Shown: positions 11,194 to 26,895, counted from the first letter of the stretch. The stretch is DNA of 36,059 nucleotides from an uncultured archaeon (GCA_964447495.1 CAYUTF010000025.1:1-36059), one strand, 5' to 3'. Notes: a model not told the origin generated them from the sequence alone. Numbers and translations are program-made.

Positions 11194-12414
11194 ATGAATG
11201 ATATAGAAATAGCTCTTCTCGGAAAAATTGATGATATGAAGGAAGAAATCATTGAATTTCTTCAGAAATTAGTTCGATCCCCGACTGAAGTTCCTCCTGG
11301 AAAATATAGGGACTTATCTAAAGTTATTAGCGCGAAGATGGAGGAATTTGGGATAAAAACAAAAATTAAACGAAATAATATTATTGGAGAATTGGGGAGT
11401 GAAAAGGGGCGAAATCTAATTTTTAACGCTCATTATGATACGGTCACTGTTCATGATGGTTGGACAAAAGAGCCTTATAGTGGTGAAATAGTAGATAGTA
11501 AAATTTATGGCAGAGGTTCTTCTGATGATAAATCATGTGTTGTAGCTGAAATTTTTGCGGCAAAAGCTCTATTGGATATAGGGGTTGAATTAAAGGGAAA
11601 ATTACTTCTTACGGCTGTAGTGAATGAAGAGATAGGAGGCGTCGGAGGAACGGAATACATTGTTAATGACGAAATAATTAAAGGAGATGCCTGTGTAGTA
11701 GGAGACGCTCCTGCAGCTTATCCAACTGCATATCGAGGAGGAGCCCTCCAATTTAGTTTCTTAATTAAAGGAATACGCCGACATGCTATGTGCTACCCCG
11801 ATTTAGTTCCTCAATATCGTAATGAATTTTCTGGAATTAATGCGGTTCATAAAATGCTTCCTATCATGAATTTTTTGATGAAACTGCAAGAAGAATTCAA
11901 TACAAAAGAAACCAAATATCCTGTGCCTTTGTCTTTACCAAAAAAGGTAAGCAGTGTTGAGATCACTAAGATGGAAGGTGGAAATGCAGTAGATACTGTA
12001 GCAGATTATTGTAATCTGCATTGTATGATTAATGTAATTCCTGAACAAGATATTGAACCAATAAGAGCAAAAATTTTTGCATTTATAGAAGATCTAAAGA
12101 AAAAAGATCCTGATTTGGATATACTTGTCCAAAATCCGATTTCAATTAAACCCCAAATAGCAGATATCAATTCAGATATTGCTAAAGCGGTAAAAGATGC
12201 GTTTAAAACTATTTATAAAGAGGAAAGAGAATTTAAAACGTTTATTCCCACAACTGACGCTCATAATTTCCAACAAAAAGGAATAGAGACAATTTTAATA
12301 GGTACAATTCGAGGGGAGAATAATATCCATGCCCAAGATGAATTTGTATATATCGATGACTTAATCAATGTGACAAAAATTTATGCACTTACGGCGCTTA
12401 ATTATCTACGCTAA
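11194..12414 (+). CDS. M20 family metallopeptidase/deacylase (ArgE/DapE-like)
   Basis: FNAHYDTV, YGRGSSDDK, NEEIGG, TDA, IHAQDE motifs. Confidence 0.92.
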   Translation: MNDIEIALLGKIDDMKEEIIEFLQKLVRSPTEVPPGKYRDLSKVISAKMEEFGIKTKIKRNNIIGELGSEKGRNLIFNAHYDTVTVHDGWTKEPYSGEIVDSKIYGRGSSDDKSCVVAEIFAAKALLDIGVELKGKLLLTAVVNEEIGGVGGTEYIVNDEIIKGDACVVGDAPAAYPTAYRGGALQFSFLIKGIRRHAMCYPDLVPQYRNEFSGINAVHKMLPIMNFLMKLQEEFNTKETKYPVPLSLPKKVSSVEITKMEGGNAVDTVADYCNLHCMINVIPEQDIEPIRAKIFAFIEDLKKKDPDLDILVQNPISIKPQIADINSDIAKAVKDAFKTIYKEEREFKTFIPTTDAHNFQQKGIETILIGTIRGENNIHAQDEFVYIDDLINVTKIYALTALNYLR

Positions 12415-12479
12415 CCCAATTTACTCTTATTTTTTTAATAAAATAAATAAAAAAGATAGTTAAAATAAAATTAGATTGA

Positions 12480-13247
12480 TTATATTTCTTCTCCAGATTC
12501 CTTTCCCATAAGCCTTAAAACGGAATCTGCAAGCTTATTTTGACTACGACTCATTATTCCCTTAATTTTCCCTTCTTTTCCGGTCACTCTGAGCATGATG
12601 CCATTCCATACTGAACTAGGCTCTCCTTTAACTTTCTTAAATCTATCCCGATGAACAGTAACTTCAATATTTTTATACTTTTTGGCAGCATCGGAACATT
12701 TAAAACATAAAATGCATTTATCTTTATCCACTACTATAGATTTTCCCTCTCGAGACATCGCATCGACCGAACACTCCTCTACAAATTGATCAATAACCTT
12801 GGTGTCCTTTTCATTACAGGTTATAGTTATCGATCCATCAACGACTTTTCGTACTTTACGTCCATCCTCAAGAGTTCGAACCTCCTCCTCAAATTCTGGA
12901 AGAGAACCATTTTCTACTAGTAAGATTTTATTCTCTCCATTGATTAATAATTCTAAGGTGTATCCTGGACATATCCATGAACAGCTACCACACCAAATGC
13001 ATTTATTGATATCAACGACAATCTTCTTGTCAGATTCTATTTTCATGAATTCTGGTGTGCCGATAGCGGTCTTTTTAAGGGGCTCTTCGTAGATAGATAT
13101 TGTTACAGGGCAAACCCTTTGACAAAATCCACACTCTAGGCAAAGGGACTCATCATATTTTAATATCGATTCATGATTGAGCATTTTATATACATAATGG
13201 GTGATATTCTCATCTACTTGAACTGCCTTTTTTACTGGTAATGACAA
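12480..13247 (-). CDS. Polyferredoxin / multi-4Fe-4S protein
   Basis: CLECGFCQRVCP, CIWCGSCSWICP, CILCFKC motifs; TTG start with GGAGTG SD-like motif; last gene of the hdrA-mvhD cluster. Confidence 0.85.
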   Translation of the reverse strand: MSLPVKKAVQVDENITHYVYKMLNHESILKYDESLCLECGFCQRVCPVTISIYEEPLKKTAIGTPEFMKIESDKKIVVDINKCIWCGSCSWICPGYTLELLINGENKILLVENGSLPEFEEEVRTLEDGRKVRKVVDGSITITCNEKDTKVIDQFVEECSVDAMSREGKSIVVDKDKCILCFKCSDAAKKYKNIEVTVHRDRFKKVKGEPSSVWNGIMLRVTGKEGKIKGIMSRSQNKLADSVLRLMGKESGEEI

Positions 13248-13302
13248 TTTTGTTCACTCCCTTTTTTCTTAAAAATTTATTTTCTTAATGATTAATAAAG
13301 AT

Positions 13303-14433
13303 TTATGTTCTTCCAAGTTCCATTTGTTTTATGGCTTTACCAGACCTGAATGGTATATCGTCAACGTTCTCACCAGAGGTGTACTTAAATTTTTTCTTGA
13401 AGGTCTCATTGAGCGATTGAAAATATAATGATAAAGGTAAATGTTGAGGACAATTATTATCGCAATTTCCGCATTCTACGCAGCGATCTGCCACATGAGC
13501 TATTCTGGTTAGCTGATAGGTATTACTATCTATGTTTTTTTCTTTTTTCTTTTTCATAAGTATGCAATCAACGCAATAACAAACAGGGCAGCCCCGTATG
13601 CATATTCCGCATGCTGTACATGCTTGGAACTTAGCTAATTTTTCTTTTTGAGATAATTTATCCCATTCTTCCAAATCTTTCGCTCTCTTTGCTAAAGCAT
13701 GTTCCTTGATCTCTTTAGCTTTTTTCGTATGAATTTCCTTTAAATCAGCGGGAAGTATCTTTGTGGTAATTTTTGATTTTTCAACAAGTTCAGAGCCCTT
13801 ATCTGAGTAAACTTTAAGGATTATTTCTTCAGAATCAATTGGAATTCCGATATCGCTAATTCCTAAATCTGCCACAACGGGAACTTTTCGTGTGCATCGG
13901 GAACAATTTTCGGCTATCTCTAAATCAAGTTCTTTTGTCTTTCCATCATTGAATTTAAGAATTAACCCCTTATCGCCAATTTTTTCCTTAATAACCTTAG
14001 TAGTATCAATGTCCTTATATTTTTTCATTTCTCGGGACACATTTATTACCATACCGCGATCTTCGAAAGCAATGATAAACAAATTGTCTAAATTAACCTG
14101 CTTAATTTTTACTAATTCAATTATTCCTCGAGTGTCGCATGGTCTCGCAATTAAGCCAACCTTTTCTTTCATTGCTCCCTCAAGTGATTTATGGAGATAT
14201 TTTGCAGCGGAATCTGTTCTTGCATATCCATAAGCAATAAGATTTGTCAATGGAAAACCTGATATATCCTCCGGTTTTTCATACACTTTCGGACTTACAG
14301 TAAATCGATCTTCTTGACCTGATTTTTTATCTACTTTAGTTTCGGCGCCGATAATTTTGTCCACTTTCTTTTCTTTCAGTAGAGCCTTTAATAATTTTGG
14401 AAAATCTTCAATTTTAATTAAATATTCTGCCAT
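13303..14433 (-). CDS. FdhB/FrhB-family (FlxC-like) Fe-S subunit
   Basis: ARPCD.R.I.EL.K..Q, CSRC....P..ADL, CTACGICIRGCPVCYC, AH.ADRCVECGNCDNNCP. The start could be 14433, 14442 or 14451. Confidence 0.82.
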   Translation of the reverse strand: MAEYLIKIEDFPKLLKALLKEKKVDKIIGAETKVDKKSGQEDRFTVSPKVYEKPEDISGFPLTNLIAYGYARTDSAAKYLHKSLEGAMKEKVGLIARPCDTRGIIELVKIKQVNLDNLFIIAFEDRGMVINVSREMKKYKDIDTTKVIKEKIGDKGLILKFNDGKTKELDLEIAENCSRCTRKVPVVADLGISDIGIPIDSEEIILKVYSDKGSELVEKSKITTKILPADLKEIHTKKAKEIKEHALAKRAKDLEEWDKLSQKEKLAKFQACTACGICIRGCPVCYCVDCILMKKKKEKNIDSNTYQLTRIAHVADRCVECGNCDNNCPQHLPLSLYFQSLNETFKKKFKYTSGENVDDIPFRSGKAIKQMELGRT

Positions 14434-14546
14434 TGCATCCATGTATATCAAACTCTCTATTATTCTATTTTTTATGTTTAAATTCTTCTTTTACTTACTT
14501 CAATTACATTTTTTTTAATAAAATTTACATTTTGTATATTAATTCT

Positions 14547-14625
14547 TTAATGTGTTATATGGGGCTTCCATTTCTTCCGTTGAACTCTCATTTTTTTAGT
14601 TCAACATCATCAGTAAACACATTTA
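14547..14625 (-). promoter_or_regulatory. Eukaryote-like SECIS element in the 3' UTR of mvhD/vhuD
   Basis: Minus strand reads AAUGUGUU-UACUG-AUGA-UGUUGAACU-AAAAAAAUGAG-AGUUCAACG-GA-(AGAAAUGGAAGCCCCAUAU)-AACACAUU: AUGA/GA core, fully paired 9-bp upper stem, apical A-run, 8-bp lower stem, starting a few nt after the TAA. Confidence 0.9.
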
Positions 14626-14628
14626 ATT

Positions 14629-15069
14629 TTATGTTTTTATTTTTTGAGGTGTGTCGCCCTTACTTTTGAAAGGATTGGGGCCTAATGTTCGAATGACTTT
14701 ATCAAATTCAGTTGCTTCGCGTTGGAACTTTTGTCCCTCAGCTGCACTACAATAACTCAATCTTAATCGTTCTTCTTCGAGACCCATAGATTTTAACACT
14801 TCTTTTAGATATTCTACTTGACGGAAAGCGAAATAATTACCCGTTTCATAATCGCATTCTTTAGGATATCATCCCACTATCAAAACACCGTCAGCGCCTC
14901 TTCCAAAAGAGCGCATAACGACGTCTGCTCCAACTCGTCCCGTACATGGTACTAGAATAACTCGAATAGAATCGGGATATTGCGCACGAATTGTTCCCGC
15001 CATATCAGCAGACCCGTATCCTCACTTCCAACATAGAAATGCAATAATCTTAATATCTTCTTCTGCCAT
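14629..15069 (-). CDS. vhuD: Selenoprotein MvhD/VhuD (hydrogenase [2Fe-2S] delta subunit), 146 aa, Sec16 and Sec67
   Basis: Absent from the ORF track. Translation: MAEEDIKIIAFLCWK(U)GYGSADMAG...YP..IRVILVPCTGRV...GADGVLIVG(U)YPKECDYETGN...ERLRLSYCSAAEG...LGPNPF. TGA at 15022-15024 and 14869-14871 align to Cys in the paralog at 23293..23760. Confidence 0.95.
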
Positions 15070-15082
15070 AATGTTTCCCTCT

Positions 15083-17059
15083 TTAATCCTCCATAGGAAG
15101 TAATTCATCAATTAAAGCCATATATTGATCATCTCTAAAGTATGTTAATTCAATAGCTTTAGACGGGCAAAGACTAGCGCATGTACCACATCCTCTACAT
15201 AAAATGAGATTAACAACGATAATTCCCTTTTCATTGACTGAAATTGCTGTGAAAGGACAAGCTTCGATACATTTATAGCATTTAGCGCATCTTTCATCGG
15301 AAGGAGTGGCTCTAATTAATTCCATGGTATATTCGCCTTTACTCATTGGTATTGCTGCCGATGATGCTGCACCCTTCGCTTGACTCACAGATTTATCTAT
15401 CTCTTTTTGTCCTTGAGCAGAACCGCATATATAAATACCCGGAACTTTAGTACTTATAGGATCAAGTCTTGCATGATACTCCTTTAGAAAACCATCGGAA
15501 CTCTTTTCCATATTAAGGACTCGAGCGATCTCTTCTGTACCTTGTGATGGTAATGATGCAGAAGAGAGAATGACCATATGAGCTTCCATAGTAACAATAG
15601 AATCAGTTCCTACGGGTTCAAATTGTACTATAAGATTTTTTGTAAGTGGATCCTCTTCAATTTTCCCAACTAATCCTTTGACAAAGACAATTCCCGCGTC
15701 ACGAGCCCTTCTGTAATATTCTTCATAATCCTTACCTGCACATCTCATATCAATATATACACAAACGATTTCTGAATCTGGATACTCTGATTTTATCAGT
15801 TTCGAATTTTTAACCGATAGATTACAACATACGACTGAGCAGTATGGATGTTTTTTGACATCTCTACTTCCTACACAGTTAATAAATATTATCTTGGTAG
15901 GACGCTTCCCATCGGATGGTCGTTTCAAATGGCCGTATGTTGGACCGTTTGGAGCAATAATCCTTTCCAACTGTATTTGGTTGATGACATTCTCAAATTT
16001 TCCATATCCATAATCGGATCCTTCATAGAGATCCCAACCCGTCGCAACAATTATAGTACCAATATCGAGCTTTACAATTTCTTCTTGTTGTGAAAAATCA
16101 ATGGCATCTTCTACACAAGCATCGACACAGCCAAAACACTCAACACATGACTCTCTTACAATGTCGTATATTGCAGGAACTGCTTGAGCGAAGGAAATGT
16201 CAATACATTTACGAGCTGATAGATGTTCATCAAAATAATTTGATACATATATCGGGCAAACATCAGTACAAGCTCCACATCCAGTGCATTTACTTTCAAT
16301 GACGAATCGTGGATTTCTTTTTACTTGTACTTTAAAATTGCCAATATATCCATCTACTTTGACTACTTCACTGTACGTTAATATTTCAATATTTGGGTGA
16401 CGGTTAGCCTCTAACATTTTCGGACCGAGAATTCATATGGAACAATCATCGGTTGGGAACGTTCTATCGAGTTGACTCATTCGTCCACCGATCGTCGTAT
16501 TCTTTTCTATTAAATATACTTTGTATCCAGTATCACCTAAATCGGTTGCTGCTGACAAGCCTGAAATTCCACCGCCAATCACTAAAGCTGTTGGTGTGAC
16601 AGGAACCGTCATAGTTGGCACATCTTCTAATAATCGTGCTCGAGCGATTCCCGCTTTAATTAATTCAATAGCTTTTTTAATTGCTTTTTCCCGTACTTCT
16701 GGAGCTTGATGAACAAAACTACAATGCTCCCTGATGTTTACAAACTCAAAATATCTTGGTGGAATGCCTGCTTCCTTTAAAATCGCAGCAAATACAGGTT
16801 GATGTGTTCTTGGAGTGCATGCAGCTACAACAATTCGATCGAGTTTAAATTCTTCTATTTGTTCTTTAATATACGAACTTCCCCCTTCAGTACACATGGA
16901 AAGATATTCATATGCTCGAACTCCGTCTAATTTGTTGATTTCTTCGACTATCCTCGGAACATCTAAAATACCTGCTATATTTATCCCTCAGCGACACACA
17001 AAAACGCCTACAGTAGACGTTTCAGCTTCATAATTTTCCTTGGTCTGATTTCCAGACAC
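15083..17059 (-). CDS. hdrA: Selenoprotein heterodisulfide reductase subunit A, 658 aa, Sec24 and Sec209
   Basis: ORFs 16433..16897 and 15083..16417 are in one frame, joined by TGA 16433-16435 (FPTDDCSI-U-ILGPKM). The frame extends upstream through TGA 16988-16990 (VGVFVCR-U-GINIAG) to a GTG at 17059 preceded by AAGGTG. Confidence 0.94.
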
Positions 17060-17404
17060 ATTTAACACCTTTATTGATATATCCTCCTAATTTTTCAAGA
17101 ATATATGTTATAAATCTCTCTATTTAATAGTATCTAATAGAATATATTTATGATATTGTTAATAGTTCTTATTTTTTAAGTTCAATTATTATTAAATTTT
17201 ATTCAACGTATTTTAATATTTGAAGTTATAAGCTTTAATTACTCAATTAATCCGACAAAATATCACATGGTTATCGTTTCCAATAACTTATAAGAGAGGA
17301 AATTAATGGACTTGATAAAAAATGAATAAAAAAATGATGAGGTTGATCATATTTTTAGATATCATATAATAAATTACTTAATATTTTGGAGATAAATCTA
17401 GAAT

Positions 17405-18580
17405 ATGCAAGGTATTGAAAAGTCTATTATCAACAATGTTATACTAAGGAAATATCATCTTTCAAAAGATTCAAAAATAGATTATATTCTACAAATTACA
17501 GAAGACTTATGTGGTTTACACGCTACGGGGACCATAGAACCATATATTCAACTTTTTGTTAGGATGAATCATTTTATTAAGGAAGATTTAGATACCGAGC
17601 CATATATTCATAAAACCCTTGGTAGAATACGTGGTATGCGCAAAACATTATTTATTCTAGCAAAAGAATTAATGGAGATTGTCCATCCTATCGTTTGAGT
17701 TCTAACTCAGAAACGTGATGATAAATATTTAGAATACCGAGATATCTCTTTAAAGGAATATGAAATACTTGCGAAAAAAATAGCAAATCTGTTAGAGAAA
17801 AAAGAACTATCTACAAGTGAGATTAAAAAAGCAATAAATTCAAAGAAAGACATCGTAGCTGTAATCTCGATTATGTGCGACCAAATGATTTTACTTCGAG
17901 GTAGACTTTTGAGCAGTTGGAAAGATAGGAGGCTTTTATATGTTCCATTCAAAAGATATTTTCCAGACATAAAGTTGGATAGATATACTGAAGAACAAGC
18001 TATATCCTTACTCATTAAGAAGTATCTGAAATCTTATGGCCCCGTAACCAAAGAAGATATAATATGGTGGACTGGATTAACTAAAACCAGAATACAACCT
18101 GTTCTTACTGAATTAAAAGAAGATATCGAGCCAATCCAGATATCAGAATTGAATGAAGAATATCTCATAATAAAATCTGATTTCGCAATGTTAGAAAATG
18201 TTAGACATATTCCTGAAAGTACAATAAATTTACTCCCTTTACTTGATCCGTATATGATGGGATACAAAAGTCGTGAACGATATGTTGATTTGAAGTATTA
18301 TGATTACATATTTGATCGATCCGGAAATGCAACATACGTCATACTCCAAGATGGGGTCGTTATAGGAATTTGGGATATTATCGAAAAACCAGACCCTGTA
18401 TGTAAGTTATTTTTCTTCAATGACATTGATGATAATGTTCTACATGAAGTCTATTCAAAGGCAATTGCATTAGGTACATTCATAACAGGGAAAAAACTTC
18501 AAATTAAGAATTGTAAGTCAATGGTGCCTTTAACAAAAAGAACAATGGGTGGTTTCATGTCTCCTTTAAAGGAAGCTTAA
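17405..18580 (+). pseudogene. AlkZ/YcaQ-like (HTH_42) DNA glycosylase interrupted by one in-frame TGA
   Basis: ORFs 17405..17698 and 17873..18580 share a frame, with only TGA 17696-17698 between them. Motifs GLHAT...PYIQLF.R, MRKTLF, YLKSYGPVT..DI.WWTGL, LLPLLDPYMMGYK.R. Confidence 0.78.
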
Positions 18581-18999: not shown

Positions 19000-19542
19000 T
19001 TACTTCTTTATTCCAAATTCAGTTACATCGCCAAATAGGCGTTTTACAGCTTGGATACGCGTCTCTTCTCCGATCTGCTCGACGCTCTTCAGACTAATTG
19101 CCTCCTTAGGACAGACTGCTATACATTGAGGCTCACGTTTGCCCACCTCGGGGTCAATAAACTCCTCTTTCATCGTTTCGCATAAATCGCATATCAGTGC
19201 TTTTTGTGAATCTAAATGGAGAGTGATCACACCAAAATCACAAGCTCGAATGCAAAAGCCACATCCGTTACATTTGTCGTTGTCAACTAAAATTGATCCT
19301 TCTTCATCCTTATCTAATGCTTTTTCAGGACAAGCTCTGATACATGGAGCATCTTCGCATTTCTGACACGCAAGCGCAATGTTAAAAATTGGCTCAATTC
19401 TTACACGATGAATTCGGGTATTAATTGGATTAAATTGTGCATCATGGACGAAGCTGCATACACTCTCACAAGTTTCGCATCCTGTACAAAGTTCTGGATC
19501 TACAACTATAAATTGGTGAATTCTCTTCTTTTTTGCTGACAT
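19000..19542 (-). CDS. 4Fe-4S dicluster protein (Fe-S partner subunit of AOR)
   Basis: CTGCETCESVC, CQKCEDAPCIRACP, CNGCGFCIRAC, CDLC...CIAVCP; its ATG directly follows the aor TAA. Confidence 0.9.
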   Translation of the reverse strand: MSAKKKRIHQFIVVDPELCTGCETCESVCSFVHDAQFNPINTRIHRVRIEPIFNIALACQKCEDAPCIRACPEKALDKDEEGSILVDNDKCNGCGFCIRACDFGVITLHLDSQKALICDLCETMKEEFIDPEVGKREPQCIAVCPKEAISLKSVEQIGEETRIQAVKRLFGDVTEFGIKK

Positions 19543-21474
19543 TTATTTTTTCTTACCTCCGGATGCGGGTTTTAAGTTTCCAATAACAAAATCGAGACCT
19601 AATTTCTTGAGGGTTGCATCAGTTGGAATTCCCGTTTCTTTATTCCAGCCACGTACTTCATAGTAGCCACTAAGTAAGGTTTGGTATCCTTCTTCTTTGA
19701 GTACAACTCCTTTAGCAGGACCTTTCGTATGGGCTTCTTTAAAGAACTTCTCAGGAGGATGATCATCTGCTCGAGTCCAGCCTTCCCGAATATTGAAGCA
19801 TTTTGATAAATTAACGATTGCTGCCCCTCTTTGATTAATAGATTCTTCTGTATGAGGGATGCCCGTAACTAATTCGTAGACTTTTGCCATTTCGGCATCA
19901 TTTTCATAGATTCCTCGGGTAAACTTACAAATAATATAGGAATCAATAATCGCATAAATATCTTCTACTTCAATAATGGATTTCGCTCGTTCAAGTGGTT
20001 GTCCATAACCAAAGCGATCATACTTACCTTTCGCATCAAGACCGTAGGCACCATTTCGTAAATGACAAGCCCCACGAATGGATACACTTTCGCCCACAGC
20101 AAAAGAGGTCATCCCGTGAAGGTCAAATGCCGGCATTTCTAAACCTTTTATATGCATTCCATAATAACTTGCATTTTTTCGGCCCATTTCTTCTAATCGT
20201 ATTCCTGCTAGCCTAGTACCGTCGCCAAAAATCTCTCCTGCGAAACCTTCTCCCAGTATCATCTCTTCGGTGAATCTTACTAAATTTTTTGTAGAACCAA
20301 AGGGTAATTTATATCCTAAATCTTTATCAGTTACAAGACCTTTTTCAAAACATTCCATACACATCGCGGCACTAACCCCCGCCGAAATTGCGTCGATTCC
20401 TAGATCATCACATAAAGCAACACATTTAAACACTGTAGGCCAGTCAGGATTACCGCAAGCACTTCCAAAACTATAACAGATCTCGACATCAATACTTGCA
20501 AATAAGTTTGGATAATCTGGATGGGTTTTGGGAACTTGGGCAATATGATCACAAGCTATAGAGCACTGAGAACACGCAACTTTTTTTACCACCCAATCAA
20601 TATTTAAAGTATCTCCTGTAAATGCGCCATTATCGATCTCTTCCCAGGTTCCCTCTTGATGATTTCGAACAGGAAACATACCAAGCTTGTTATAGCTCGT
20701 TATACCCGCGGGAGTTCCTAAGTCTCGATATTTCGCAGTAGCTGGACCATTTGCGACTTTAATTAATTTCTTAGCCATTTTATAAAATTCTGCTGGTTGT
20801 GCGACTTTAATACTTTTTATCCCTCTAAAGCAGATTGCTTTTAAATTCTTAGAACCCATTACTGCTCCCATACCCGTACGACCTGCTTGTCGATTTCGAT
20901 CGTTAGTAATACAAGCTAGCTTACTCATCTTTTCGCCTGCTGGCCCAATTGACATGACCGCTAATCTTTGATCTTGAAATTCCTCTCGAAGTAGTTCTTC
21001 AGTTTCCCAACAGCCTTTACCCCATACTGTTTTCTCGCATGGAACTAAATAATAATCATCATCGTCAATAACCAAGTAACAAGGTTTAGCTGCTTTACCT
21101 TTTATAACAATCATATTTATTCCGGCTCTACGAGCCTGAGCTCCTACTGAGCCAGAAGAAATTGACATACCAAACATATTTGTAAGTGGTGATTTTGCAA
21201 AAACACCATACTTCGAACTTGTGGGTAAAATAGTAGTTGGAAAAGGACCAATTGCCCATACAAATACATTATCTGGACTTAATGGATCCACACCAGGTTT
21301 AAGCTCATCCCATAATACCTTCGCACCAAAACCATATCCTCCAATCCAATCGCGGCAGAATTCATCAGAAAGCGTAGTTTTGTCAATCTTTTCATTGGTT
21401 AAATCAACATCGAGTCTCACTTGAGAATATCCTTTTATTACTTCTGGTATAGAAATATCTTTAGATTTACTCAT
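19543..21474 (-). CDS. aor: Tungsten-dependent aldehyde:ferredoxin oxidoreductase family enzyme
   Basis: AKSPLT, SIGPAGE, AGRTGMGAVMGSKNLKAI, CxxCxxxC, DDLGIDAIS, KGLEMPAFD, RGACH, YY..RGW motifs. Confidence 0.95.
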   Translation of the reverse strand: MSKSKDISIPEVIKGYSQVRLDVDLTNEKIDKTTLSDEFCRDWIGGYGFGAKVLWDELKPGVDPLSPDNVFVWAIGPFPTTILPTSSKYGVFAKSPLTNMFGMSISSGSVGAQARRAGINMIVIKGKAAKPCYLVIDDDDYYLVPCEKTVWGKGCWETEELLREEFQDQRLAVMSIGPAGEKMSKLACITNDRNRQAGRTGMGAVMGSKNLKAICFRGIKSIKVAQPAEFYKMAKKLIKVANGPATAKYRDLGTPAGITSYNKLGMFPVRNHQEGTWEEIDNGAFTGDTLNIDWVVKKVACSQCSIACDHIAQVPKTHPDYPNLFASIDVEICYSFGSACGNPDWPTVFKCVALCDDLGIDAISAGVSAAMCMECFEKGLVTDKDLGYKLPFGSTKNLVRFTEEMILGEGFAGEIFGDGTRLAGIRLEEMGRKNASYYGMHIKGLEMPAFDLHGMTSFAVGESVSIRGACHLRNGAYGLDAKGKYDRFGYGQPLERAKSIIEVEDIYAIIDSYIICKFTRGIYENDAEMAKVYELVTGIPHTEESINQRGAAIVNLSKCFNIREGWTRADDHPPEKFFKEAHTKGPAKGVVLKEEGYQTLLSGYYEVRGWNKETGIPTDATLKKLGLDFVIGNLKPASGGKKK

Positions 21475-23292: not shown

Positions 23293-23760
23293 TCACAGGC
23301 ACCTTTCAAGTTCGATTAAACCTAATTTTTTAGGGATTTTTGATTCTCCTAACGCTTTCACGGTATTAGTAAATTCTGTTATTAATTCTGCAAACTGTTT
23401 CCCTTCACTTGCAGAAATCCAATGCAATCGAAATCTTTCTTCTTCTATTCCTATACTTTTAATTAAATTTTTTAAATGTTCCATTCTAACTTGAGTTAAT
23501 TCATTCCCAGAGATATAATGACAATCTCCTATATGACATCCGGTAACTAAAACTCCATCGATTCCATTCTTGAATGCACTTAGTATAAATGTAGGCTCAA
23601 CCCTTCCAGAGCACATAACTCTCACGATTCTTATATTTGGGGGATACTGAAACCTAGATACACCCGCTAAATCAGCTCCCGCATAAGAGCACCAATTACA
23701 ACAAAATGCTAAGATCTGAGGTTCAAAACTTTCTTCTTTTTTACTTTTTGATTTTGTCAT
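23293..23760 (-). CDS. mvhD: MvhD (cysteine form)
   Basis: AFCCNWCSYAGADLAG...RVMCSGRV...GCHIGDCHY..GN...WISASEG. Confidence 0.95.
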   Translation of the reverse strand: MTKSKSKKEESFEPQILAFCCNWCSYAGADLAGVSRFQYPPNIRIVRVMCSGRVEPTFILSAFKNGIDGVLVTGCHIGDCHYISGNELTQVRMEHLKNLIKSIGIEEERFRLHWISASEGKQFAELITEFTNTVKALGESKIPKKLGLIELERCL

Positions 23761-23778
23761 TTTTTAAAATCCTCTTAA

Positions 23779-26700
23779 TTACTCTTTTTGACATGCTTTA
23801 AGATTAATTCCAGTAAGTAAATCAATTTGCTTTTTAATTTGGAACTTGCTGAAATGTTTCTGATCTATTGCACCTAAAGGACATTCTGCTGCACAAGCAC
23901 CACATCCTTTACATACTGCGTCAATAATATGTGCTTTTTTCTCAGTAATGGTATATAAACCCATTTCTTTAGTAATATCAATCATTTCTATGGCTTTATA
24001 TGGACAAATTTCATAACATCTTCCACATCCTATACATTTTTCAGGATTTACTTGAGAAGTAATACCTTCAGTTTCTACTTCTCCTTTCACCATTAACATA
24101 GCAGCTCGTCCCGCTGCCCCATAACCTTGATCCATACTCTCATCAATCCATTTTGGCCAGTGAGCATTACCACACAGGAATATTCCTTCTGTAGCAAAGT
24201 CAATTGGCCGCAACTTAACGTGAGCTTCTAAGAAAAAGCCATCTTTTGTAGTAGGAACTTTGAGCTTCATGGCTAAATCTTTTGTACCCTCTGCAGGAAC
24301 TTCAGGGGTCGCTAATATCAATAAATCTGAGTCATATTCTATATCACATTCAGCTCCTATATTATGATATTTTACATGGAAAGAATCACCATTTGCAGTT
24401 AGCAGAATATCATCAATTGACTTATATCTTTCAAACATAACTTTATTTCTTAAATCTCGCCATAAACTTTCAGCATTTATGTCAGAAAACTGAAGTTCTC
24501 TATATAATACGTGAATTTGAGCATCTGGGTTTAATTTAAGTAACTTTTCGATATTCTTTAATGCAACTCTGCAACAAATATTACTACAATAAGATTTTAT
24601 TGTATCACCCTTATTACATTCATTTGCTCTCTGATCAACGCATAAAATTATAGTTGCTGCATTAAATTTAGGAATATCCTCTTCCCTTTTTTCATCAAAT
24701 TCTCTTTGAATATAAACGCGTTTTTCATATTTTTCTTGGATTTCCTTCCATCTTTCTGTCTTAATTTGATTTGAACCTGTTGCAACAATTATAGTCCCAA
24801 CCATGAATTCTTCTGTTGTTTCCTCATTAGATATGGTTTGCACTTTTATTTGATAATTCCCCACAAAACCTCGAATATCCTTTACTTTTGTGCTTGTAAG
24901 AATGTGAACATTATCCATACTTTCTAAATCCTTGATATAATTATCAATATCATCATTACTTAAGGATAAATCATATAGATCTACGTAATTGATGGCATTT
25001 CCTCCTAAAGTTTCTTTTAGATCAATTAAATATACTTCTAATCCTTGTTGGGCAAGATTACGGGATGCTATAATTCCTGCGATACCCCCTCCGATAACCA
25101 ATGTTGATTGCTGAACCTTAACCTTTATTTTTTGCAGTGGTTTTAAATTAACTACTTTGGCTAAATACATACGAATTAAATCCTTTGCTTTTTCAGTTGC
25201 TTTCTCAGGTTCATGTTGATGTACCCAAGAGCATTGATCTCTGATATTAACTAATTCGAATAAAAATTGATTTAATCCCGCTTCCCTCAAAGTATTTCTA
25301 AATAAAGGTTCATGGGTCCTAGGAGTACATGAAGCAACAATAAATCGATTTAATTTATATTTATGTATCATCTCTATTATTTGTTCCTGAGAATCTGAAC
25401 TGCAGGAATACATGTTTTCTTCTGCATGAGCGACATATGGTAATTTTGATACATACTCAACAACTTTTGCGGTATTAACTGTTCCTGCGATATTAATTCC
25501 ACACTGACAGACAAGCACTCCTACGCGAGGGTCTTCATCAGAATGGATGGGAACTTCAGGAGGATATTCAATCTCTTTAATATTTTCAAATCTGACAGGA
25601 TATAACTTTTCACTAATCTTTGCAGCACATGCTGAGCCCTCTGCAACAGAAGTTGGGATATCTTTAGGTGTTCTTGCATAGCCTGCAAAATAGATATTAT
25701 TCTTTTCACAAGTTGCGAATCCTTCGTTATCAATATATCCTAAATCATTAATTCCTACGTTCAAATTCTTTAATAATTCGTAATATGATTTGTTGGGAAA
25801 TAGAACACTTGCTAAAACAACTATATCAACCTCGTTAGCCTCAACAGTTCCTTTATCAATATCTTCATAACTTAAGATTAATTTTCCATTGTCGGGATTT
25901 ACTTTTACGAAAGACACTCTTCCATTAATATACTCTACACCATATTCTTCCTTGCTTTTTACAATGAATTCATAAAAGTTCTTTCCCTTTGCTCTTATCT
26001 CAGTATTATAAATCAAACATTCAGTATCGGGAGAGTGTTCTTTTGTAATGATTGCTTGTTTAGCTGAAGCCATACAACAAATAGCAGAACAATATTTTTT
26101 ACATCCAAGATGGTGAAAATCTCTGGATCCAACACACTGTAAGAAAGCTATCTTATGAGGATGTTTTTTATCATCTAACCTTATTACTTCACCCCCAGTA
26201 GGTCCATTTGCAGAAAGAAGACGCTCATATTGCATACTTGATAAAACATTTGGATTACTTCCACCAAGTACTTCATAAAATTCTGGTAATTCTTGTTTAA
26301 ACCCTGTAGCAATTACAATAGCTCCTACATCTATGTTTATACTTCTCGGTGTTTGGGAAAAATCAATTGCATTTGCGCTGCATTTTTTTTCACAGAATCC
26401 ACACGCTCCGAATTTTAAATGTAGACATGCATTGTCATCAATTAGATAAACTGGGGGTACTGCAGATGGGAAAGAAATATATGCTGCTTTTCTATTGTTC
26501 AAATTGCAATTAAACTCACTCGGTAATTTTTTAACTGGGCAAACAGAGGCACAATCTCCACATCCCTTGCATAAATCTTCTTTGATATATCTTGGTTTTT
26601 TAATTACTTCAATTTTATAATTACCCGGTGAACCCTCAATATTTTTCACATATGAATATGTTAGAAGCTCGATATTCGGATTTCTAAACACCTCTACCAT

Positions 26701-26895
26701 CTTTGGAGCAAGGATACATAAACTACAATCCAAGGTGGGAAATGTCTTATCGAGTTGTGACATTGCTCCACCAATAGTCGATTTCTCTTCAACAAGATAT
26801 ACTTTAAAACCTAATCCTGTCAAATCTAAGGAAGTTTGTATCCCTGCGATACCGCCTCCGATTACGAGAACGCTACTCTGCATTTTTTCCGACAT
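23779..26895 (-). CDS. hdrA: Large HdrA-like flavoprotein (cysteine form, two FAD-binding modules)
   Basis: Two IGGGIAG motifs, LDKTFPTLDCSLCILAPKM, internal GVLVCQCGINIAG...CTPRTHEPLF...NIRDQCSWVH domain, C-terminal 2x4Fe-4S. Confidence 0.92.
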   Translation of the reverse strand: MSEKMQSSVLVIGGGIAGIQTSLDLTGLGFKVYLVEEKSTIGGAMSQLDKTFPTLDCSLCILAPKMVEVFRNPNIELLTYSYVKNIEGSPGNYKIEVIKKPRYIKEDLCKGCGDCASVCPVKKLPSEFNCNLNNRKAAYISFPSAVPPVYLIDDNACLHLKFGACGFCEKKCSANAIDFSQTPRSINIDVGAIVIATGFKQELPEFYEVLGGSNPNVLSSMQYERLLSANGPTGGEVIRLDDKKHPHKIAFLQCVGSRDFHHLGCKKYCSAICCMASAKQAIITKEHSPDTECLIYNTEIRAKGKNFYEFIVKSKEEYGVEYINGRVSFVKVNPDNGKLILSYEDIDKGTVEANEVDIVVLASVLFPNKSYYELLKNLNVGINDLGYIDNEGFATCEKNNIYFAGYARTPKDIPTSVAEGSACAAKISEKLYPVRFENIKEIEYPPEVPIHSDEDPRVGVLVCQCGINIAGTVNTAKVVEYVSKLPYVAHAEENMYSCSSDSQEQIIEMIHKYKLNRFIVASCTPRTHEPLFRNTLREAGLNQFLFELVNIRDQCSWVHQHEPEKATEKAKDLIRMYLAKVVNLKPLQKIKVKVQQSTLVIGGGIAGIIASRNLAQQGLEVYLIDLKETLGGNAINYVDLYDLSLSNDDIDNYIKDLESMDNVHILTSTKVKDIRGFVGNYQIKVQTISNEETTEEFMVGTIIVATGSNQIKTERWKEIQEKYEKRVYIQREFDEKREEDIPKFNAATIILCVDQRANECNKGDTIKSYCSNICCRVALKNIEKLLKLNPDAQIHVLYRELQFSDINAESLWRDLRNKVMFERYKSIDDILLTANGDSFHVKYHNIGAECDIEYDSDLLILATPEVPAEGTKDLAMKLKVPTTKDGFFLEAHVKLRPIDFATEGIFLCGNAHWPKWIDESMDQGYGAAGRAAMLMVKGEVETEGITSQVNPEKCIGCGRCYEICPYKAIEMIDITKEMGLYTITEKKAHIIDAVCKGCGACAAECPLGAIDQKHFSKFQIKKQIDLLTGINLKACQKE

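Follow-up and report, generated by a model that had tools for sequence, protein, structure and literature searches.

Within a 36,059-nt window of DNA from an uncultured archaeon (GCA_964447495.1 CAYUTF010000025.1:1-36059, the whole stretch analysed here), the minus strand carries an hdrA gene interrupted by two in-frame TGA codons, at codons 24 and 209. Comparison with homologous sequences identified UGA-24 as a genuine, conserved codon for selenocysteine (Sec, U) at the second Cys of the N-terminal motif C-x-C-G-x-N-I. We are highly confident that it is a Sec codon of a multi-Sec HdrA of the Lokiarchaeota type, with the mRNA shared with the downstream vhuD gene and a single selenocysteine insertion sequence (SECIS) element as parts of the best explanation.

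The plus strand at positions 16985-16996 was ccctcagcgaca, the reverse complement of which, TGT CGC TGA GGG, reads Cys-Arg-UGA-Gly. When TGA was translated as Sec, the hdrA frame stayed open for 658 codons, in agreement with the length of 658 residues reconstructed in the initial annotation of the window, and just the two TGA codons lay inside it. The GTG start was preceded by GGTG at a distance of 7 nt and by AGGAGG farther up. The product was identified as HdrA, the electron-bifurcating flavoprotein subunit of heterodisulfide reductase, over its full length, as phmmer matched residues 13-655 with solved HdrA at E-values from 4e-206 to 5e-173 (9sfi_A, 4e-206; 5odc_A, 1e-193; 8rvu_a, 5e-193; 7bkb_A, 5e-173; 8rvv_A was also matched), and Pfam detected FAD/NAD-binding and 4Fe-4S (Fer4) domains. 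In each of the five solved sequences, the column of codon 24 held the second Cys of the C-x-C pair. The initial annotation had placed the TGA at 16988-16990 on precisely this residue and had noted the canonical HdrA Sec in D-C-S-I-U-I-L as well; translation and alignment supported both statements. The remaining conserved N-terminal Cys residues, Cys11, Cys46 and Cys71 of 5ODC, corresponded to codons 22, 56 and 81. It had also been foreseen that annotation pipelines would cut the gene at the TGA. Indeed, gene calling with translation table 11 gave only the fragments 15083..16417 and 16433..16897, and a standard gene caller splits hdrA in this way and loses the N-terminal iron-sulfur (Fe-S) domain, so that reading through the codon is important when the metabolism of Asgard archaea is reconstructed.

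The TGA codon was kept in contigs from four other public sequencing runs that covered positions 16988-16990. Four long pieces were identical to the window throughout and two short divergent pieces had no difference listed at the codon, in a comparison in which differences near contig ends go unlisted. The same genome (223 contigs, 98% complete) contained four full-length Sec-type hdrA genes, whose products were 46-52% identical to one another and which all had TGA at both the C-x-U site and the canonical site, along with three further full-length hdrA paralogs having Cys at both sites. The three other Sec-type hdrA-vhuD pairs were located on contigs C51, C5 and C126, and the hdrA copy on C5 had a third Sec, in A-A-U-T-P (Cys71 of 5ODC).

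The conservation of the codon was then followed in related genomes. Within the same order, 36 loci were compared from 21 genomes; site 24 was TGA in 24 loci and Cys in nine, while the region was absent from two, being truncated or fused forms, and misaligned in one. In-frame TGA within the conserved protein was confined in these loci to four Cys columns, with U counts of 24 at column 24, 15 at column 56, 11 at column 81 and 31 at column 209. A phylum-wide sample gave a match to the N-terminal domain in 108 of 121 genomes; its 30 best loci, from several families, had C-x-U in 21 cases and C-x-C in nine. All 30 kept Cys at the first position of the motif, as did every other locus in which that codon was tabulated. 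Of the 80 closest loci in genome_contigs, almost every one bore the label of Promethearchaeota or of a different Asgard candidate phylum. TGA was present in every one of the 79 that were readable at the site, with the sequence fully conserved on either side, whereas the codon for Cys two positions before it alternated between TGT (53) and TGC (26); such retention goes far beyond chance. The loci nearest to the hdrA of the window came from metagenome-assembled genomes of Promethearchaeota/Promethearchaeia. Near-identical orthologs (70-86% identity) carried inconsistent labels (Odinarchaeota, Hodarchaeota, Hermodarchaeota, Thorarchaeota and one 'Nanopelagicaceae bacterium'), which are probably labelling or binning artefacts. 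C-x-U was the commonest extra HdrA Sec site among the loci tabulated.

The occupancy of the two sites was also compared pairwise. In 128 distinct stretches spanning the N-terminal and flavin parts, taken from all fetched loci, positions 24/209 were U/U in 110, C/U in nine, C/C in three and C with no motif at the second site in six. The combination U/C did not occur, and none of the 110 distinct stretches with Sec24 lacked Sec209. This nesting of Sec24 under Sec209 is compatible with functional coupling of the two residues, in counts that are inflated by kinship. Eight distinct stretches, from relatives of the same genus, had Sec at each of the four sites (24, 56, 81 and 209), covering the entire Cys set around the N-terminal cluster.

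A SECIS of the kind described for Lokiarchaeota (lokiSECIS) begins 19 nt past the stop codon of vhuD, and UGA-24 lies approximately 2.4 kb upstream of it. Its parts follow in the order AUGA, UGUUGAACU, AAAAAAAUGAG, AGUUCAACG and GA. The strict pattern applied here (R-UGA, a 9-nt stem with at least 8 pairs, a 9-14-nt loop starting with AA, and then GA/AA) gave one match in the 36-kb window, where 0.32 was expected from 50 shuffles. Compensatory double changes were found in five of the nine stem pairs across six clean orthologs, to which the covariation analysis was restricted; a MAFFT alignment across the paralog groups was displaced by indels. The centroid fold of the region was the same hairpin, and its single-sequence z of -1.56 was unremarkable alone. 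An Rfam scan of positions 12000-18000 with E-values up to 1 returned no family, and Rfam seems to be without a lokiSECIS model, so that this negative carries no weight.

The machinery for Sec insertion was present as well. A tRNA-Sec gene (57.7 bits, above the cut-off) adjoined the gene for SepSecS (475 bits) on contig C19, which also carried EFSec/SelB (245 bits). SelD was matched with 176.9 bits at G000:C55:11999-12838, with one in-frame TGA inside the match, as expected of a Sec-containing SelD. SepSecS, EFSec and SelD all scored above their respective cut-offs. The vhuD gene itself had two in-frame UGA codons, codon 16 (15024..15022) and codon 67 (14871..14869); among the MvhD/VhuD matches in PDB, both fell on the columns of the two X residues in the methanococcal VhuD chain 9sfi_K. 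The second of them, Sec67, stood on the Cys of G-C-H.

Two explanations without Sec were weighed against these data. The TGA could be a real stop codon, a lesion in a pseudogene or an artefact of assembly or sequencing, with the first 23 codons unlinked to the rest, as the closure of the table 11 frame at codon 24 would have it. This is contradicted by the codon being the same in all 79 readable loci between fully conserved flanks, by its retention in the four paralogs of the genome and in the contigs of the four other runs, by the occurrence of TGA on Cys columns only, and by the presence of the SECIS and the Sec machinery; we regard its probability as negligible. Alternatively, a reassigned code might read every TGA as a sense codon, in which case the site would not be Sec. 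The frame that opens under TGA read-through fits such a code and is the sole point in its favour. TGA nevertheless serves as an ordinary stop in the window: the open reading frames (ORFs) of at least 150 residues ended with TAA in 19 cases, TGA in three and TAG in two, and a Cys-type MvhD paralog stopped at TGA directly after a complete FlpD domain. Together with the confinement of in-frame TGA in HdrA to Cys columns and the dedicated tRNA-Sec and SepSecS, this contradicts a reassigned TGA, to which we give hardly any credence.

In the explanation by Sec insertion that we favour, hdrA and vhuD would most likely be transcribed on one mRNA, and their four UGA codons, two per gene, would be recoded by tRNA-Sec and EFSec via the single eukaryote-like SECIS 3' of vhuD. 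The proposed sharing of one SECIS by the two genes is taken from the accessible part of Mariotti et al. (2016; PMC4989117). Several points weigh against this explanation. The read-through of UGA-24 is predicted from the genes, and no RNA run was found with the stretch. The PSTK-like gene, with 144.8 bits, stayed under the NCBIfam cut-off. The SECIS was called with our own pattern and the published description, not with an Rfam model. Finally, the locus sets behind the counts of 36, 30 and 79 loci overlap and their genomes are related, so that these counts express conservation and not independent events.

The initial annotation had gone one step further and proposed that selenium is an extra ligand to the Fe-S cluster of the N-terminal domain. 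This is supported in part: a second real Sec in the cluster-bearing domain was borne out, and a bond of Sec24 to iron is a reasonable conjecture. The published texts disagree over which Cys are the ligands. A predicted model of the N-terminal domain agreed with the N-terminus of solved HdrA (Foldseek, TMq 0.74-0.78), which bears the [4Fe-4S] cluster HA3/A3 (PMC9012536, PMC13518236). According to the accessible text of PMC9012536, this cluster is held in the crystal structure by Cys of the N-terminal domain and by Cys197 of the other HdrA subunit. Two cryo-electron microscopy (cryo-EM) papers of 2026 (PMC13518236, PMC13580544), in the parts available, regard the equivalent of Cys197, together with the other Cys of its C-x-x-C pair, as 'additional' Cys, which bind an unknown ligand or form a selenylsulfide located between the cluster and flavin adenine dinucleotide (FAD). 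The Sec-capable in-protein positions of Asgard HdrA corresponded to Cys13, Cys46, Cys71 and Cys197 of 5ODC; by alignment, all four belong to the set of Cys around one mobile [4Fe-4S] cluster. A limited search did not find this mapping to the Cys set of the shuttle cluster spelled out in the accessible literature, which is no proof of its absence, and PMC12350162, PMC6019823 and a bioRxiv preprint on HdrA named no N-terminal ligands in the parts available.

Within the mobile N-terminal domain, Sec24 replaces the second Cys of C-x-C. In the crystal form, the canonical Sec209 contributed by the partner would reach the same cluster site, so that two selenium atoms would lie at or beside one cluster. 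That Sec24 bonds directly to iron in one or more conformational states is, in our view, about as likely as not. Three published statements, each from the accessible part of its source, count against ligation. The paper by Mariotti et al. (PMC4989117), written before the structures, said that the Sec positions are not cluster ligands; Cys197' as a cluster ligand (PMC9012536) would free one of the four N-terminal Cys; and the Cys197-equivalent is 'additional' and not a cluster ligand in the 2026 cryo-EM papers. One N-terminal Cys is presumably spare in the crystal form, because four N-terminal Cys are conserved and the partner Cys is among the crystal ligands.

Sec24 might accordingly be real and yet not bind iron. 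It would then be the spare fourth N-terminal Cys position, a redox-active selenol beside cluster HA3 that exchanges with Cys206/Sec209 of the partner in a selenylsulfide or diselenide relay from FAD to the cluster, with the non-ligand Cys16 of MvhD, replaced by Sec16 in VhuD, as its analogue. We hold this to be possible, while leaning against it. The ligation in PMC9012536, by N-terminal Cys and the Cys197 of the partner, is in its favour, as is PMC13580544, which in the part available names MvhD Cys16 and HdrA Cys202/Cys205 as 'additional' conserved Cys en route to FAD; VhuD Sec16 of the window aligned with MvhD Cys16 without gaps, a correspondence that by analogy hints at Cys13 as the spare residue. 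The absence of Sec24 without Sec209 in the 110 distinct stretches also agrees with it. When hhalign was used to align the profile of the HdrA N-terminal domain to that of VhuD, the result was collinear and paired the Cys/Sec columns (C22/U24/C56/C81 on C13/U16/C42/U67), and MvhD chains were among the first non-HdrA matches in Foldseek. The alignment was weak, however (probability 16%, pairwise E 0.0016), BLASTP of the domain against VhuD was not significant (E 0.23), and Pfam FlpD had no match to three N-terminal domains at E-values up to 10. In Foldseek, the MvhD chains took ranks 9, 15 and 19 and, with TMq of 0.37-0.43, fitted no better than other flavodoxin-like folds, and the hhalign and Foldseek results give weak hints only of a relation between the HdrA N-terminal domain and MvhD/VhuD. 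In the cryo-EM states, moreover, the cluster leaves Cys197' on the mobile arm and needs a fourth ligand, for which Cys13 is the obvious candidate.

Selenolates are better nucleophiles and better leaving groups than thiolates. A more speculative form of ligation by Sec24, which we consider rather unlikely, is that Sec24 and the partner Sec209 act as a pair of interchangeable ligands on HA3, the mobile shuttle cluster. With the arm docked at the flavin, the partner Sec209 would displace Sec24 on one iron, giving the crystal-type ligation; when the arm swings off to deliver the low-potential electron, Sec24 would re-bind the iron. As better nucleophiles and leaving groups, selenolates would speed this ligand swap and, through it, the gating step of electron bifurcation. 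Such a swap would explain why the canonical site is always Sec, why C-x-U is the site most often used for a second Sec and is never used in the absence of the first, and why the first Cys of the motif is always Cys where tabulated. If it were true, the cluster would be wholly selenium-ligated in the eight distinct four-Sec relatives.

The features of the hdrA-vhuD region and the fused hdrA paralog are listed in Table 1. In the same-strand cluster at 12480-17059, to which the look for hdrBC was confined, neither hydrogenase subunits nor hdrBC were found. The electron donor or acceptor of the Sec-type module may differ from that of the methanogen Mvh-Hdr complex, because genes for an FrhB-like protein and a polyferredoxin, and not for a hydrogenase or HdrBC, come after hdrA-vhuD.

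Table 1. Coordinates of the features discussed, counted from the first letter of the window
Feature	Coordinates	Strand	Remarks
hdrA coding sequence	17059..15083	-	658 codons, GTG start, TAA stop (15085..15083), two in-frame UGA
Codon 22 (TGT), first Cys of the C-x-U motif	16994..16996	-	Cys11 of 5ODC
Sec codon 24 (UGA, V-C-R-U-G-I-N-I-A-G)	16990..16988	-	Cys13 of 5ODC HdrA
Sec codon 209 (UGA, D-C-S-I-U-I-L), canonical HdrA Sec	16435..16433	-	Cys197 of 5ODC, X in 9sfi_A
vhuD/mvhD (FlpD family)	15069..14629	-	13 nt after the hdrA stop; Pfam FlpD, E 1.4e-44
lokiSECIS	14610..14576	-	AUGA, 9-bp stem, 11-nt loop AAAAAAAUGAG, GA
FrhB/FdhB-like Fe-S protein	13303..14442	-	Pfam FrhB_FdhB_C, E 3.5e-9
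Polyferredoxin-like 4Fe-4S protein, last of the cluster	12480..13247	-	Pfam Fer4 families
Cys-type fused double HdrA paralog	26895..23779	-	1038 aa; V-C-Q-C-G-I-N-I-A-G, D-C-S-L-C

An all-Cys counterpart of the module was located 6.7 kb away at 23296-26895 (minus strand), where a fused double HdrA is followed by the Cys-type MvhD ending with TGA, and selenium and sulfur versions of the Hdr module stand side by side in the window. The motif of the fused paralog, GVLVCQCGINIAG (G-V-L-V-C-Q-C-G-I-N-I-A-G), had Cys at both positions, with the codon of the second at 25503..25501, as the initial annotation had read it in this in-window paralog. An aldehyde:ferredoxin oxidoreductase (AFOR_N/AFOR_C, E 7e-98) and an adjoining 4Fe-4S ferredoxin were encoded between the two Hdr modules, at 19000-21474 (minus strand). 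The window also contained a gene for an AlkZ-like DNA glycosylase at 17405-18580 on the plus strand (Pfam PF06224, E 1.9e-37, residues 33-325). One in-frame TGA at codon 98 (17696-17698) divided it into ORFs of 97 and 235 residues. The strict SECIS pattern had no match near this gene, and its TGA could reflect a pseudogene, an error or read-through.

The extra Sec sites of Asgard HdrA have been known since 2016, and the later structures add their location. The in-protein Sec positions all sit in the Cys set of the single mobile [4Fe-4S] cluster, to which flavin-based bifurcation passes its low-potential electron. If selenium does ligate this cluster, natural selenium-ligated Fe-S clusters would stand at the heart of electron bifurcation.

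The closest known systems are the HdrA-VhuD pairs of Lokiarchaeota. As far as the accessible part of Mariotti et al. (2016; PMC4989117) goes, multi-Sec HdrA of Lokiarchaeota have five Sec positions, all on conserved Cys and one of them in the last, C-terminal ferredoxin motif, with at most four Sec per protein. In that account, hdrA and vhuD are always adjacent, the stop codon of hdrA is always UAA or UAG, and one lokiSECIS 3' of vhuD, with a 9-bp stem, an 11-nt apical loop, an AUGA..GA core and an A-rich loop, serves up to six UGA codons over approximately 2 kb. A survey of Asgard genomes in 2024 (PMC11227280, accessible part) found HdrA selenoproteins in 58% of the Sec-using genomes, with the same shared SECIS. 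The window agrees with the Lokiarchaeota pairs in having hdrA immediately before vhuD on one strand, a VhuD with two Sec, an HdrA with more than one Sec including the canonical one and with every Sec on a conserved Cys, and an hdrA stop other than UGA. The strict-pattern search likewise placed its single AUGA/9-bp stem/11-nt A-rich loop/GA element 3' of vhuD only. There was no difference of substance, and the hdrA of the window is a typical, already known case of the multi-Sec HdrA-VhuD pairs described in 2016. The initial annotation had left it undecided whether the C-x-U position had been reported before. The kind of protein had been (PMC4989117); the exact residue is very likely one of the five published positions, since no other extra site is used as often. 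The four in-protein Sec sites found here and the C-terminal site reported in 2016 make five, matching the published count.

The single-Sec HdrA of Methanococcales and Methanopyrus (9sfi_A) resembles that of the window in its full-length match, its canonical D-C-x-x-U, which is discussed as Sec197 in the available part of PMC13518236, and a vhuD with two Sec on the same columns. Unlike the HdrA of the window, 9sfi_A has Cys at the C-x-C position (VCYCG), and the papers assign the methanococcal SECIS to the archaeal type, whereas that of the window is eukaryote-like. The Cys-type HdrA of HdrABC-MvhAGD (5ODC, 8RVU, 7BKB) is likewise a four-domain protein, made up of an N-terminal, a thioredoxin-reductase-like, an inserted and a C-terminal ferredoxin part, in which the columns of the four N-terminal Cys and of Cys197 are conserved. 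All five positions are Cys in these proteins, while two are Sec in the HdrA of the window and up to four in its relatives. Sec16 of VhuD and Cys16 of MvhD (PMC13580544, accessible part) provide a further parallel to Sec24, coming second in a short Cys pair where the first strand of a small alpha/beta Fe-S domain ends. That domain lies on the same mobile arm as the HdrA N-terminal domain and has Sec in its selenium form. VhuD/MvhD differs from HdrA in the spacing of the pair (C-x-x-U against C-x-U) and in the cluster ([2Fe-2S] against [4Fe-4S]), and homology of the two domains was not established here.

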